Positions 25,448 to 50,538 of a stretch of DNA of 64,000 bases are shown here, in pieces. This DNA comes from Phototrophicaceae bacterium. Lineage in GTDB: Bacteria; Chloroflexota; Anaerolineae; Aggregatilineales; Phototrophicaceae. Every line of letters begins with the position of its first letter. Position 1 is the first letter of the stretch. The DNA lies in contig OZ242316.1 in assembly GCA_965207905.1 (NCBI GenBank), positions 4,163,848 to 4,227,847 on the forward strand. The letters are read 5' to 3'. The notes under the pieces are model-generated. The model had not been told where the DNA came from, did no database searches, and worked only from the letters and a program-made list of their open reading frames with translations. A program made the translations under genes and the position numbers.

Positions 25448-26677
25448 ATGGTACAACCTACGAAACATAACCGCGTTCGCATCTCGCAAGGCGATTTCGC
25501 TGTAGCGGGTCGCTATGATTGCACAGCAGGTTGCGATGTAGACGCAGACTATGTCGTTGTCTCGCTTTTGAACTTCAAATCACAGACAAACGAAATTCGG
25601 CAAATACCTCAGACTCAGGCAAAAGCGAATGCAGCTGCAAAGTGGCTCAAACAGAACAAAGTAGAGTTCATAGTTCTAGAATCGACCGCAAATTATCATT
25701 TGACTTTTTATCACGCTTGCCGAAAACTTGGTCTGAATGTACACATCATCAATCCCGCTCAAGTCACGGCGCTACTTCGAATAGAGGGCAAGTCGGATAA
25801 GGCGGATGCGACAAATCTAGCCATGCTAGCCGCTACTTTTCCCCTAAGAACTTCCAATGTTCCAGATGCCCAACAAATAGAGATTCGTAGCAACTTGCGG
25901 AATTATGACCGCGACAGAAAAGCATTAACTAAAGTTAAGCAACGGGTTCATCAAGAACTTGCGCAGTTTGGAATAAATATCTTCCGGGAAACTACGTTGA
26001 GAACCCAATCAGGCCGGGCGTTTCTGGAAGCGCTTTCTCAGACAGAGGACGCGGCGGAAATGATTGTTCAGAATCACTGGAAAGGTTCACCTAGCAGCCG
26101 CCCAAGATTGATAGAGGCAATGGGGAAGACGGAAGAACTCCCAACTTGGCTTCGTCAGGAACTTGAAGTGCTAAGAATTGACCTACTTGTTCAAGAGCAA
26201 AGAATTAGAAACCGAGAACAACAAGCGCTAAATCATATCGAACATTTTGAGCTAGCGCCTCAGATCGCTTGGATGTCCACGACACCAGGAGTAAACTGGC
26301 TCGTAGCTTTACGACTAATTGGTGAAATGGGATCGGACTTTTGGCAACGATATTCAACATCAAGAGCCTGGTGTAAGGCTTTAGGGGTCGCCCCGAACAC
26401 TCTTGTTTCTGCCGGGAAAGTCCTTAAAACCTCGAAAGCCTTAGGAAATAATCATGCCAAGCGACATCTCCTCATGCAAATGCGTAATTGGTTATTGCGA
26501 AACCATGAGCACCCATTGAAACAGTGGCAAGTACAATATAGAGCTAAAGCAGGCTTTCGCAAATCAGTATCCGCGTGCTGCAATAAAGCCATGACCAGTT
26601 TATATCATCAAGGCCGGCACGGCGGTTTACCGTATAATCCGAGTCGGATGAAGTTACGATTCCCTGAAACTATCTAG
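25448..26677 (+). CDS. IS110 family transposase (DEDD recombinase)
   Basis: 409 aa. VEFIVLESTANYHLTFYHACRKLGLNVHIINPAQV...KSDKADATNLA is the typical N-terminal DEDD_Tnp_IS110 region. The C-terminal Transposase_20-like region includes PGVNWLVALRLIGEMG. Confidence 0.9.
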   Translation: MVQPTKHNRVRISQGDFAVAGRYDCTAGCDVDADYVVVSLLNFKSQTNEIRQIPQTQAKANAAAKWLKQNKVEFIVLESTANYHLTFYHACRKLGLNVHIINPAQVTALLRIEGKSDKADATNLAMLAATFPLRTSNVPDAQQIEIRSNLRNYDRDRKALTKVKQRVHQELAQFGINIFRETTLRTQSGRAFLEALSQTEDAAEMIVQNHWKGSPSSRPRLIEAMGKTEELPTWLRQELEVLRIDLLVQEQRIRNREQQALNHIEHFELAPQIAWMSTTPGVNWLVALRLIGEMGSDFWQRYSTSRAWCKALGVAPNTLVSAGKVLKTSKALGNNHAKRHLLMQMRNWLLRNHEHPLKQWQVQYRAKAGFRKSVSACCNKAMTSLYHQGRHGGLPYNPSRMKLRFPETI

Positions 26678-31304: not shown

Positions 31305-34300
31305 CTATTCCACCTTCAGCGCGACCACCCCGAAGCCGGCGTTGCTCAGCATGGTGTTGAACTCCGCCAGATTGCCATCGACGATGTCGCTGAACTTGTC
31401 GGCCACGCCGTCAATATCAGACGCGATTTCGGCCAAAGCCTCGTGTTCGTAGTCGGTCGGCTTGTAATCGCCCAGATTGACGTTGAAGCTCAAATTGCTG
31501 AGCTGAGCCGCCAGCCGGTCGCCGTGATTCATGGCATCGGGCCAGCCGGCGCGCGTTTCCGGGATCATCAGCTCTTTCTCGACTTCCAGCACCTGTTCTT
31601 CCAGCGCCTTAGCCCCGTCGATGATGCCGGCCGCCGATTCCAGTCCGGCCAGCCGTTCGCGCCAGCCTTTGAGCTGCGCCCGCACATCGCGCATCTGGTT
31701 GACAACCTTGTGCGTCGAAGAGACCTTGTCGCGGATGCTCAGCAGCAAGTCGAATTGCGCCTGTAAATCGGCTTGGCTGGCTGCGACGCCGGCTTCCTTA
31801 ACGATCTCCAGCGGTTGGCTGAGTTCTTCCTCGCCAACGGTCAGCGTGACGCGGTAGCTGCCCGGCACGGCATGCGGCCCCTTGATGAAGCCCTGCTGAT
31901 TGTCGTCGTGCGGCGCGACCTTGTGCGCGTCCGGGTATCGCATGTCCCAGACAAAGCGATTCCAGCCGGCGTTTGACGGGATGCGCAGCTCTTTGGGCGA
32001 GTCGTCCGTGCGCGTCCCCGCAGCCTTCTCTTCCTCATCGGCGTGCAGGCTCTTGAAAGTCTTGACCTCATTGCCGTCGGCGTCTTCAATGCGCAGCGTG
32101 ATGGTCGACTCCGGCGCTTCGAACAGATTGTAAGTGATGACCGCGCCTTTGGGTGGGTTCGTGCCGCTGTCGAGGTAGGTGTGCTTGACGCCGTGCTCGG
32201 GCGTCTCCTCCTTGACGTAAGCGGCCACCATGCCCAGCGTGCTCATATACTGTTTGCCGTCACCGCTGTCGAAGAGGCCTTCGAAGACCTTGGGCAAATG
32301 CCGTTCCACCGCGCCCGGCTTGAGCAGGTGGGCCGCTGTACCTACCCCATCCCCCGGCCCCTTCCCCGAATCATCAGGGAAGGGGAGCGTCGCGTCGCTC
32401 GAATCTGCCGCATCCATGCTGCTACCTTCCCCCCGTTGATACGGGGGGACCGAGGGGGGTAGACCCGCAACCTGGTGAAGCGCGCCGACGTCATCAAGCA
32501 CCCAGAATGAGCGCCCGTGCGTGGCCACGACCAGGTCCGCGCCCTTGAGCTTGAGATCGTAGATCGGCGATACGGGCAAGTTCAGCTGGAAGCGCTGCCA
32601 GTTGGCGCCGGCGTCGAAGGAGACGTACAAGCCGAACTCGGTACCCAAATAGAGCAGCCCCTCGCGCTTCGGATCCTCGCGCACGACGCGGCAGAAATGA
32701 TCTTCGGCGATGCCGGCGATGATGGCTGTCCAGCTGGCGCCGTAATCAGTCGTCTTGTAGGCGTAGGGCGCGTAGTCGTCGTTCTTGTAGCGCGTGGCCG
32801 TGACGTAGGCGGTCGCCGGGTCATGCGGCGAGGGCTCGATCATCGTGAACATGACCCCCACCCCAAACCCCTCCCCCATAAAGAGGGAGGGGCTTTTTGC
32901 TCCCCTTCCCTCCCCTGTGGGGGAAGGGGCCGGGGGATGGGGGGTAATATCGCTCCAGTTTTCGCCGCCGTCGCGCGTGATATGCAGCAAGCCGTCATCG
33001 GAGCCGGCCCAGATCACGCCCGGCTCATGCGGCGACTCGGCCAGCGTGTAAACCGTAGCGTAATGCTCGGCACCGACCGCATCGCGATTGATCGGCCCGC
33101 CCGACGGCTTCAGGGTCTCGGGATCGGCATTGGTCAAATCGGGGCTGATCTCCTGCCAGCTCTGCCCCTCGTCAGTCGTCTTGAGTATCTGACTGCCGCC
33201 GATGTAAATCGTGTCGGAGTCATGCGGCGAGAAGACGATGGGGTAGGTCCAGGCGAAGCGGTATTTGTCGGCCTGCGCGCCCAAGCCGGTCGAGCTGCGC
33301 GGCCAGGTGGCGATGAGGCGAATCTGCTGCGTGCGATGGTCGTAGCGCTGCAAGCTGTTGCCGCCGCCCGGCGAGCTGCCGATGGCGCCGACATATACGA
33401 TATCCGGATCATCCGGATCCACGGCGATATAGCCGCTTTCGCCCGAGCCGATGATGTCGCAGTCCTCCCAGGTGATCGAGGAGTAGCGGCTGCGGCTGGG
33501 CACGCGCAAGCTGGAGTTGTCCTGCTGCGTGCCATAGACGTAGTAGGGTTCGCGGCTGTCGAAATCGAGATGATAAATTTGCGCCGTCGGCTGATTGTAA
33601 ATGCTCGACCAGGACAGCCCGCCATTCAACGAGACGCAGGCGCCGCCGTCGTTGCCGTGCACCATGATCTGGTTGTTGCTCGGATGAATCCACACATCGT
33701 GGTCATCGCCGTGCGGCGTGGTGATTTCGGTGAAATTATGCCCGCCATCGGTCGATTTCCAGAAGTTGAGATTGTTGATGTAAACCGTGTTGGGGTCGAC
33801 CGGGTCGGCGGTCAGGTGCATATAATACCAGGCGCGCGAGATGAAGCGGTTGTCTTTGCTGCCGACCACCCAGGTCTCGCCGTAATCATCGCTGCGATAG
33901 ATGCCGCCATCGGGCTGATTCTCAATGATGGCCCAGACGCGCCCGGGCTGCGCGGGAGAGGCGGCCAAGCCGATCTTGCCCAGCAAACCCTTCGGCAAGC
34001 CTACCCCCCTCGTTCCCCCCGACGAGTCAGGCGGATGATTTGACAGCTCCTTGACGCCTGTCAGGCATTGCCAGGTGTCGCCGCCGTCCATGCTGCGCCA
34101 GATGCCGCTGTCCTCGCCGCCGGAGCTAATCTGCCAGAAATTGCGATAAGCCTGCCAAAATGAGGCGTAGATAATACGCGGATTGTTCTTGTCGATAGTC
34201 AGGTCAATGGCGCCGGCTTGGTCGCTGACATGCAGCACATTCTCCCAGGTCTCGCCGCCATCTTTCGAGCGATAAACGCCGCGCTCGGGGTTGGGCCCGA

Positions 34301-34727
34301 AGGCGTGCCCGAAGACCGCCGCATACACCAAATCGGCATTCTGCGGATGGGTACGGATCTTGGCGATCTGGCGCGTTTCTTTCATGCCCAGGTGCTTCCA
34401 ACTGCGCCCGGCATCGGTCGATTTGTAGATGCCGTCGCCGATGGAGACATCAATGCGAATTGTCGTCTCGCCCGTGCCGGCGTAGATGACGTTGGGGTCG
34501 GCCGGCGCCACTTCCAGCGCGCCCACTGACGAAGCCGTGAAGTAGCCGTCGCTGATGTTCTCCCAATATTGGCCGGCGTCAGTCGTCTTCCAGACGCCGC
34601 CACAGACGCCGCCGAAGTAGAAGGTGTTCGCGTCGCGCGGGTCGCCGGCGACAGCGACAACGCGCCCGCCGCGGAAGGGCCCGATGCAGCGGAATTCCGC
34701 CAGCCCGGCGAATTTGGAGTCGGTCAT
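31305..34727 (-). CDS. Large BNR/Asp-box (VPS10/sortilin-like) beta-propeller repeat protein
   Basis: 1140 aa with many S/TxDxGxTW Asp-boxes (TTDAGQYW, STDAGRSW, SKDGGETW, SMDGGDTW, SDDYGETW, STDGGHNF, TTDEGQSW, TRDGGENW, TTDYGASW). It carries three extra G/P-rich segments that coincide with palindromic DNA elements. Confidence 0.85.
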   Translation of the reverse strand: MTDSKFAGLAEFRCIGPFRGGRVVAVAGDPRDANTFYFGGVCGGVWKTTDAGQYWENISDGYFTASSVGALEVAPADPNVIYAGTGETTIRIDVSIGDGIYKSTDAGRSWKHLGMKETRQIAKIRTHPQNADLVYAAVFGHAFGPNPERGVYRSKDGGETWENVLHVSDQAGAIDLTIDKNNPRIIYASFWQAYRNFWQISSGGEDSGIWRSMDGGDTWQCLTGVKELSNHPPDSSGGTRGVGLPKGLLGKIGLAASPAQPGRVWAIIENQPDGGIYRSDDYGETWVVGSKDNRFISRAWYYMHLTADPVDPNTVYINNLNFWKSTDGGHNFTEITTPHGDDHDVWIHPSNNQIMVHGNDGGACVSLNGGLSWSSIYNQPTAQIYHLDFDSREPYYVYGTQQDNSSLRVPSRSRYSSITWEDCDIIGSGESGYIAVDPDDPDIVYVGAIGSSPGGGNSLQRYDHRTQQIRLIATWPRSSTGLGAQADKYRFAWTYPIVFSPHDSDTIYIGGSQILKTTDEGQSWQEISPDLTNADPETLKPSGGPINRDAVGAEHYATVYTLAESPHEPGVIWAGSDDGLLHITRDGGENWSDITPHPPAPSPTGEGRGAKSPSLFMGEGFGVGVMFTMIEPSPHDPATAYVTATRYKNDDYAPYAYKTTDYGASWTAIIAGIAEDHFCRVVREDPKREGLLYLGTEFGLYVSFDAGANWQRFQLNLPVSPIYDLKLKGADLVVATHGRSFWVLDDVGALHQVAGLPPSVPPYQRGEGSSMDAADSSDATLPFPDDSGKGPGDGVGTAAHLLKPGAVERHLPKVFEGLFDSGDGKQYMSTLGMVAAYVKEETPEHGVKHTYLDSGTNPPKGAVITYNLFEAPESTITLRIEDADGNEVKTFKSLHADEEEKAAGTRTDDSPKELRIPSNAGWNRFVWDMRYPDAHKVAPHDDNQQGFIKGPHAVPGSYRVTLTVGEEELSQPLEIVKEAGVAASQADLQAQFDLLLSIRDKVSSTHKVVNQMRDVRAQLKGWRERLAGLESAAGIIDGAKALEEQVLEVEKELMIPETRAGWPDAMNHGDRLAAQLSNLSFNVNLGDYKPTDYEHEALAEIASDIDGVADKFSDIVDGNLAEFNTMLSNAGFGVVALKVE
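32342..32462. repeat. G/C-rich nested-palindrome element inserted in frame in the BNR gene (copy 1)
   Basis: The stem pairs are 32358-32366/32377-32385 (ccccttccc/gggaagggg), 32429-32435/32442-32448 (ccccccg/cgggggg) and an outer pair ctacccc/ggggtag (32342-32348/32456-32462). The element encodes ...LPPSVPPYQRGEGSSMDAADSSDATLPFPDDSGKGPGDGVG... Confidence 0.75.
32855..32944. repeat. G/C-rich palindromic element inserted in frame in the BNR gene (copy 2)
   Basis: The stem pairs are 32868-32875/32885-32892 (cccctccc/gggagggg) and 32902-32910/32921-32929 (ccccttccc/gggaagggg). The element encodes HPPAPSPTGEGRGAKSPSLFMGEGFGVGV. Confidence 0.75.
34000..34034. repeat. Short G/C-rich element in frame in the BNR gene (copy 3, smaller)
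   Basis: cctacccccctcgttccccccgacgag contains the ctcgt/acgag stem (34009-34013/34022-34026). It encodes the extra segment HPPDSSGGTRGVG just before the conserved LPKGLLGKIG. Confidence 0.5.
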
Positions 34728-50407: not shown

Positions 50408-50427
50408 TTGACATCCTTTGTATTATC

Positions 50428-50486
50428 CCACCCCCGGCCCCTCTCGCCATCTCTATGGCGAGCATCCGAAGAATCAGGGAGGGGTG
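50428..50486. repeat. Intergenic copy of the G/C-rich palindromic element family seen inside the BNR gene
   Basis: cccacccccggcccctctcgccatctctatggcgagcatccgaagaatcagggaggggtg shares cccccggcccct and gaa(tc/ga)atcaggga(a)gggg with 32351-32386. It has an inner hairpin ctcgccat/atggcgag. Confidence 0.7.
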
Positions 50487-50538
50487 ATGCGATGTATACG
50501 GCCAGCGATGCTCTCGGTTTGGCGCCTGTGAGATGCAT

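Follow-up and report, generated by a model that had tools for sequence, protein, structure and literature searches.

How does G/C-rich palindromic DNA come to lie, in three separate places, within a single bacterial gene whose reading frame nevertheless stays open from end to end? This question is raised by a locus in a 64,000-nucleotide stretch of a Phototrophicaceae genome (hereafter the window; the genome is a single contig of 4.46 Mb with 59% G+C), where the gene for a two-propeller protein contains three such segments. A preliminary description, made from the letters of the window alone, took them for in-frame insertions of a dispersed element. We consider it very probable that the three stretches are copies of a lineage-restricted, non-coding family of G/C-rich hairpin repeats, and that these copies entered the coding sequence (CDS) of a propeller protein rich in dispensable loops. 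This reading is carried by the membership of the segments in the family, their in-frame reading, their absence from distant homologues, the repeated and differing occupancy of the same loops among orthologues, and a likeness between copies at different sites that exceeds the likeness of their host genes.

Three repeat copies in one reading frame

A single open reading frame (ORF) at 31305-34727 on the minus strand spans all three segments in frame, as seen in the ORF list and its translation, and encodes an intact protein of 1140 aa with no stop codon and no frameshift. The protein matches the Pfam family Sortilin-Vps10 (PF15902, E = 4e-29) as well as BNR repeats, and it is laid out as two propellers of GH74-like fold followed by a C-terminal beta-sandwich and a coiled coil. 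Its AlphaFold model (mean pLDDT 79, pTM 0.82) finds its closest folds in the Protein Data Bank among GH74 two-propeller xyloglucanases (Foldseek, E ≈ 1e-23). The segments of the model at residues 226-241, 598-622, and 757-796, which account for three of its eight segments with pLDDT below 50, correspond to the three inserts, and each is bordered by confident beta-strands. By this prediction, the inserts occupy surface loops at positions that suit the host fold.

The three inserts, named S1 to S3 in the order of the protein, differ in architecture. The largest, S3 (copy 1; 32342-32462, minus strand), encodes residues 756-796 (LPPSVPPYQRGEG...LPFPDDSGKGPGDGV) and is a full composite of 121 nt with CTAC...GTAG ends. 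On the gene strand, it consists of a reversed B unit, a 37-nt spacer, and a forward A unit; the A-type unit occupies 32342-32388 on the minus strand (gene-strand sequence GCTCCCCTTCCCTGATGATTCGGGGAAGGGGCCGGGGGATGGGGTAG; nhmmer E = 3.7e-13 with the seed profile), and the B-type unit occupies 32426-32462 on the plus strand (CTTCCCCCCGTTGATACGGGGGGACCGAGGGGGGTAG; nhmmer E = 1e-10 with the B profile). S2 (copy 2; 32855-32944, minus strand; residues 597-625, HPPAPSPTGEGRGAKSPSLFMGEGFGVGV) is a 90-nt head-to-head dimer of two units, found by profile searches at 32857-32892 (E = 2.8e-3) and 32899-32942 (E = 5e-8), and it stands in place of a native seven-residue loop, PGMGEWS. S1 (copy 3; 34002-34049, minus strand; residues 227-242, ELSNHPPDSSGGTRGV) is a solo B-type unit, matched by the B profile at 34001-34037 (nhmmer E = 6e-6), together with a short leader. 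It amounts to ≈48 nt of surplus relative to empty orthologues, and the neighboring native codons are changed too (IS.NK to LTGVK). A peptide that spans an insert junction reads ...SLFMGEGFGVGVMFTMIEPSPHDPATAYVTATR.

The two larger segments are thus as they were first described in sequence, whereas the third, given as 34000-34034, proves larger than that. The label of nested palindromic elements also needs revision for copies 1 and 2, which are head-to-head dimers. Subtype B accounts for copy 3 and for one half of copy 1. The related intergenic element reported at 50428-50486 is a member of the family as well. This A/C-type unit lies at 50424-50487 on the minus strand, upstream of a Gfo/Idh/MocA-type oxidoreductase gene whose start is ≈16 nt away. 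The seed profile finds it at E = 0.012 and the iterated profile at E = 6e-7, and its hairpin holds a nested 23-nt hairpin, CTCGCCATAGAGATGGCGAG, at 50443-50462. Copy 1 folds with -73.4 kcal/mol (z = -4.9) and copy 2 with -67.6 kcal/mol (z = -3.4), and none of 200 dinucleotide shuffles is as stable in either case; head-to-head composites of this kind fold as one long hairpin. The folding of copy 3 does not differ significantly from that of its dinucleotide shuffles (z = -1.0), and this copy is identified as a B-type unit by its sequence.

The family was delimited with a seed profile built from 12 genome copies, found by a simple stem search, which was then iterated, and with a separate profile for subtype B. 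The genome holds 85 A/C-type units (consensus GCTCCCCTTCCCTGATGATTCGGGGAAGGGGCCGGGGGATGGGGTAGA) by the iterated nhmmer profile and 25 B-type units, CTTCCCCCCGTTGATACGGGGGGACCGAGGGGGGTAG, by the second one. Each unit is a G/C-rich hairpin of 37-48 nt, in which a C-run and a complementary G-run enclose a loop of ≈8-10 nt, and a linker of 2-5 nt leads on to a further G-run with GTAG as its end. Pairing is preserved in the two main variants of the stem, CCCCTTCCC/GGGAAGGGG and CCCCCTCCC/GGGAGGGGG. Units often occur as composites, inverted head-to-head pairs 90-123 nt long, whose outer CTACCCC/GGGGTAG ends pair and whose terminal inverted repeats read TCTACCCC...GGGGTAGA. The genome has about 12 further composites of like architecture (98-201 nt); seven measure 112-123 nt, and four of these seven visibly share a related spacer and the same ends with the composite at 32342-32462.

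Only ≈10 of the 110 units lie inside confirmed genes; ≈100 copies lie outside them, most of these beyond any long ORF. Genic units are strongly depleted relative to the coding share of the genome, for which we assumed a coding density of 88%, a figure that also enters the enrichment estimate given below. Because a unit contains almost no A/T, four to five of its six frames are without a stop codon, and most units are indeed free of stops in at least four frames. The census agrees with the earlier proposal of a dispersed element able to enter coding sequence in frame. A search of the window against Rfam 15 gave no match at the gathering thresholds and only chance-level, miRNA-like matches at E up to 10.

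Could the three stretches instead be local low-complexity expansions, produced by slippage or compositional drift, that resemble the intergenic repeats merely through their G/C composition? The peptides are of low complexity, and orthologues differ naturally in the length of the S3 loop, but the profile E-values reach 1e-13, and the match extends over the full-length architecture including the spacers. Copies at different sites are, moreover, 98% identical, and a strict unit pattern that has 24 matches in this genome has none when reversed, here or in any of 151 family genomes. We therefore regard this explanation as highly improbable.

Occupancy of the loops across genomes and genes

The orthologues compared here come from metagenome-assembled genomes (MAGs) labeled Aggregatilineales/Phototrophicaceae (Chloroflexota, Anaerolineae), many of them from sponge metagenomes as judged by isolate names. 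Thousands of relatives emerged when a large protein collection was searched, and the closest among them (74-94% identity) measure 1062-1157 aa. In an alignment of 98 sequences with a core of 1066 columns, almost all length beyond the core is located after core columns 226, 580, and 721, and these positions coincide exactly with the three G/C-rich segments. All 46 orthologous CDS from Phototrophicaceae MAGs are intact, with lengths of 3192-3555 nt (1064-1185 aa). None of the three inserts is present in homologues at 56-62% identity, which owe their extra length to a C-terminal tail, and the empty form of 1064 aa is found in many orthologues within the family. The preliminary statement that homologues lack these stretches accordingly holds for distant homologues and for some close ones, but many close orthologues carry the same or other elements exactly there. 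The three loops are, for this reason, recurrent hot spots for element occupancy.

What fills the loops varies widely. S2 alone holds at least five element types among the orthologues, including the dimer of the window gene, a B/A composite, a solo B unit, and a composite of a reversed C unit and a forward B unit; the empty form, ITP-PGMGEWS-MFTM, is also found. At S3, the closest relatives show the B/A composite of the window gene, another composite in L001, and a common third type in L002 and L003, each of which has a different insert nested within it. The composite of the window gene is absent from S3 in most orthologues. Solo, nested, and decayed forms also occur in the loops, and the insert states are patchy on a gene tree built from 942 core codons. 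The S2 dimer of the window gene is identical at 83 of 85 nt to the S3 copy in L014, although the host genes are only 84% identical, and it is 92% identical to the S3 copies in L029 and L036, whose host genes are 78% identical to the window gene. This cross-site match shows copying to new sites, together with either conservation of the element or its recent spread.

A different account of the patchiness posits few insertion events per loop and little independent insertion, with homologous exchange between co-occurring strains and gene conversion between copies producing the rest. The flanking sequences lend it weight. The S1 insert is always accompanied by the same changes in five adjacent codons (IS.NK to LTG.E), with outer flanks that match the empty sister lineage; L029, for example, is filled at S1, and its sister L036 is empty with identical outer flanks. 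The left flank of S3 in the window gene is a mosaic, with many differences from L001 despite 94% identity between the genes, and neither a target-site duplication at the copies compared nor a transposase of the families searched was found. The same element type, however, appears at different loops in different genomes, the unit in a loop of NuoL (described below) is read in different frames, and units occur in unrelated genes and at ≈100 positions outside long ORFs, all of which requires real copying to new sites. As a full account we find few insertions a possible but doubtful one; it is best seen as a complement to copying of the repeats that explains the turnover within the loops, not their origin.

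The strict unit pattern matches 26 of the 151 family genomes, leaving 125 without, and 9 of 14 sampled genomes of the genus, but only 3 of 300 other Chloroflexota genomes; essentially, the element family is limited to Phototrophicaceae. In 13 genomes from the genus, the window gene is longer where the genome as a whole has more elements (Spearman correlation of length with count 0.70, p = 0.008), and the gene has its base length in four of the five element-free genomes.

Units are also found in frame in at least five further genes whose identity is confirmed by Pfam: those for NuoL, a PotA-like ABC ATPase, a phage portal protein, a GMC oxidoreductase, and a fused Dpp-type ATPase. The first of these offers a second comparison of the same kind. 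The NuoL unit (B-type; G000:C1:1135053-1135089 in genome coordinates) lies in a His-rich loop that, among the loci compared (L081-L110), is empty in most members of the genus and carries a B unit read as HPPPD.SGGTRGV in 7 of 29. In another clade, the same B-type unit is read in a different frame, ASPHPDGGTEGG; one genome has two tandem units, and some have decayed remnants. The His-rich loop of NuoL is thus a second hot spot.

The window gene itself holds 3 of the ≈8 genic insertion sites of the genome (p ≈ 4e-8 under the assumed coding density). Such a concentration would be expected if the loops were functional modules kept by selection, either as a varied exposed surface or as DNA or RNA structures (hairpin, G-quadruplex) that regulate transcription or translation of the gene. 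The element sequence is more conserved than the host gene, and the G-run half of the A unit (GGGGAAGGGGCCGGGGGATGGGG) is a textbook four-run G-quadruplex motif. Units contain 37 of the 42 strong G-quadruplex motifs of the genome, and the three strong motifs of the window gene all derive from its inserts (32345-32367 and 32855-32877 on the mRNA strand, 32919-32944 on the template strand). Yet many orthologues, close ones included, work without any insert, the content of the loops is interchangeable, decayed remnants are common, and the host proteins are mutually unrelated. Direct reading of the window protein, furthermore, reveals no N-terminal signal peptide, so that a role at an exposed surface is not evident. 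We consider a functional module an improbable explanation.

The remaining in-frame units lie in the TOBE domain of the PotA-like ATPase (G000:C1:2554919), after the portal domain of the phage protein (3119778), between the domains of the GMC oxidoreductase (3685381), and in the linker of the fused Dpp-type ATPase (4007362). ORFs spanning units at 4043438, 4105393, and 3055383 were rejected as in-frame cases, as they are antisense or lie upstream of the true start. A GroEL-like gene, trmD, and a DppB-like permease gene each have a unit immediately upstream of the start codon (G000:C1:128906, 3055383, and 4043438), and translation initiation could be affected there.

Copying, exchange, and the search for a mobilizer

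These observations suggest a sequence of events for the repeat copies in coding sequence. Units would be copied at the DNA level, by a trans-acting activity or by template switching promoted by the hairpin. In-frame insertion in a surface loop would yield a disordered loop rich in Pro, Gly, and Ser that the fold may tolerate, and selection would retain only stop-free copies, with a length change that is a multiple of three, in surface loops; the purging of other genic insertions by selection would leave >90% of the copies outside genes. Once occupied, a loop would exchange its content through recombination, either with other copies or with the alleles of relatives that co-occur, and this swapping would produce the turnover seen at the hot spots.

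Several results weigh against this scheme. The transposase search took in Y1/RAYT, TnpB, DDE_3, and IS110, a selection among transposase families. A six-frame search of the whole genome gave no match to Y1/RAYT (PF01797), with positive controls, and searches of the genome likewise found neither TnpB nor the IS630-type DDE_3. IS110 does not co-vary with the elements, being present in two of nine element-bearing genomes of the genus. Reverse transcriptase (RT) does not track them either: it is found in two of the nine element-bearing and one of the five element-free genomes, and a single RT gene is present in this genome. Intergenic copies show no visible target-site duplication, nor do comparisons of filled with empty genic sites reveal one. 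The native codons beside the S1 and S2 inserts are replaced rather than merely split, with 21 native nt replaced at S2, and these replacements, together with the mosaic left flank of S3, fit allelic recombination better than clean transposition. The placement of the inserts in loops depends on a predicted structure of the mean confidence given above. The inserts are presumably translated and tolerated.

Several specific origins were considered and rejected. An IS200/IS605-like origin, as palindrome-associated transposable elements (PATEs), is ruled out by the lack of both TnpA and TnpB in the genome. Targeting of CTAG or TA in the manner of IS630, suggested by the C-TA...TA-G ends, was set aside because in every copy CTAC/GTAG belongs to the inverted repeat and no DDE_3 was found. 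Retro-mobility was dismissed given that the presence of RT is unrelated to that of the elements in genomes belonging to the genus; an origin among REPINs is taken up below. Four copies of the IS110-family transposase, all with the same domain scores, occur in this genome; one lies in the window at ≈25526-25969 (G000:C1:4189373-4189816), and only one other sampled genome of the genus has the same insertion sequence.

Between inverted unit pairs with a spacing of 1-3 kb, where an autonomous element was sought, there were only ordinary genes and one ORF with a helix-turn-helix (HTH), flanked by a different miniature inverted-repeat transposable element (MITE). The genome holds an A/T-rich MITE of ≈200 nt, with a G/C unit at its center and borders of CACAGAG-type heptamer repeats, in two subfamilies of near-identical copies: one of six (G000:C1:3722160, 2613461, 3075339, 3710669, 4046253, and 3454985) and one of eight (G000:C1:158937, 1430989, 3756337, 715785, 2896342, 3298365, 3631886, and 3755130). 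Between two inverted copies lies a 337-aa ORF with an HTH-like N-terminal part (G000:C1:3755238-3756248), which might be part of the autonomous form of this MITE.

We also entertain, as a speculative and rather unlikely idea, that the units are not inert but structure-switching DNA, alternating between the hairpin and a four-run G-quadruplex, and that breaks or template switching would be induced by them at the hairpin's foot. Copies could then spread and be exchanged without a dedicated transposase, and a few permissive loops, as in the propeller protein and NuoL, would become cassette-like variable sites in symbiont populations. One clue to this possibility comes from inserts nested in the units themselves, and another from the G-quadruplex motif in the G half of the A unit. 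All four kinds of nested insert (a 23-nt hairpin, a 24-nt GGTCGCGTAGACACTGACC element, a 39-nt 'NIPREAGDRGGTG' element, and one of 40 nt) begin directly after TTCGG(G), at the junction of the loop and the 3' stem of the parent unit. The 23-nt hairpin, (ATG)CTCGCCATAGAGATGGCGAG or the compensatory variant CCCGCC...GGCGGG, has 27 genome copies, including the one at window 50443-50462, and all lie inside G/C units at one and the same point.

The other nested kinds range more widely. The 24-nt micro-element, GG[TG]CGCGTAGACACTG[AC]CC, occupies ≈30 genome sites (for example, G000:C1 669071, 2896546, and 3255255) and nests in three hosts: G/C units, CACAGAG heptamer repeats, and the loops of GTAG-tagged repeats. 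Its stem has the compensatory variants GGGTC/GACCC and GGGGC/GCCCC, and in orthologues of the window gene (L016, L017, L020, L021, and L043) it is read in frame as the eight residues GRVDTDPS at five or more different sites. The 39-nt element reads NIPREAGDRGG[AT]G and takes the same position in its parent units (L003, L004, and L011; G000:C1:722846 and 4039611); it is found in intergenic copies and, in frame, at S2, S3, and a fourth site of orthologues. These nested 23-, 24-, and 39-nt elements recall the small dispersed repeats (SDRs) of Nostocales cyanobacteria, which Elhai et al. reportedly described in 2008 in Genome Res as sequences of ≈21-27 nt nested in repeats, heptamer arrays, and mini-transposons, and whose hairpins are said to be kept by compensatory changes. 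The SDRs differ in phylum and in sequence, and nested micro-elements, although present in the intergenic copy of the window and in copies of its relatives, are missing from the three inserts of the window gene.

Relation to known palindromic repeats

The preliminary description likened these elements to the Rickettsia palindromic elements (RPEs), which are in-frame palindromic repeats of Rickettsia (Ogata et al. 2000, 2002, summarised in PMC10969869). In behavior, the likeness is borne out: both are short palindromic repeats found between genes and in frame in unrelated, still-functional genes, both are read as an extra peptide at positions compatible with the fold, and no transposase is known for RPEs. 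RPEs are, however, ≈100-150 bp long, reside in A/T-rich Rickettsiales genomes, and end in CGTC (PMC3733652), whereas the Chloroflexota elements are G/C-rich units of ≈45 nt with CTAC/GTAG ends, often dimeric, that replace one another repeatedly at the same loops. By their ends and by a distribution bound to Phototrophicaceae, rather than by alignment, they do not belong to RPE-1 to RPE-10.

Comparison with the repetitive extragenic palindromic (REP) sequences is closer in architecture. GTAG-tagged REPs, their head-to-head dimers, and intragenic REPs have been described (Di Nocera et al. 2013, PMC3733652), as have the REP doublets termed REPINs (Bertels and Rainey 2011, PMC3116915). REPs resemble our elements in that they are hairpin units with a terminal tetranucleotide of the GTAG type, some of which lie inside ORFs. 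REPs mostly form inverted pairs 20-100 bp apart with their tags outward, and the two large inserts of the window gene are likewise head-to-head dimers. The occurrence of different REPs at about one same gene site is also known, in recB of Xanthomonas (PMC3733652/PMC3116915). The polarity of the units described here is, in contrast, the opposite: the order is hairpin, linker, G-run, and GTAG at the 3' end (CTAC on the 5' side), with the tag 12-13 nt from the stem and a G-run between them, whereas the GTAG of a REP is 5' and directly beside the hairpin. With this polarity, and with no Y1 transposase and hence no RAYT in the genome, membership in a REPIN-RAYT system was rejected. A separate family of canonical GTAG-REPs (GTAGGGGCGA, loop, TCGCCC) is plentiful in the same genome (171-300 copies, for example, at window 17300 and 49275) although RAYT/Y1 transposase is lacking.

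The composites share features with MITEs as well. MITEs such as ERIC are non-autonomous, measure ≈100 nt, have terminal inverted repeats, and can lengthen or break into ORFs while keeping the frame (PMC10969869). In all of this our composites are alike, and their architecture resembles that of a MITE or REPIN; they differ in that no target-site duplication was seen and no parent insertion sequence with matching ends was found. A limited literature search found no publication describing this repeat family. Taken together, the elements are a new instance of the known RPE-like or intragenic-REP-like selfish DNA, in a new lineage and with marked turnover at hot spots.

The record of in-frame palindromic elements comes mainly from Rickettsia, and their harmless arrival in coding sequence still awaits an explanation. 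The 46 intact orthologues of the window gene constitute a natural experiment in which the same three loops are empty or hold at least five element types, nested elements, and remnants. They make testable whether hot spots reflect target preference or survivorship, what share of the changes is due to insertion and what to recombination, and how far the fold tolerates such loops. If the elements do spread without a transposase, they would be of wider interest. For the annotation of Chloroflexota proteins, loops that are rich in Pro and Gly and appear to be of low complexity, as well as variation in length, can be derived from repeats. The most interesting aspect of the Phototrophicaceae elements is the unusually clear record that they provide of recurrent use and replacement at the same loops of a protein.

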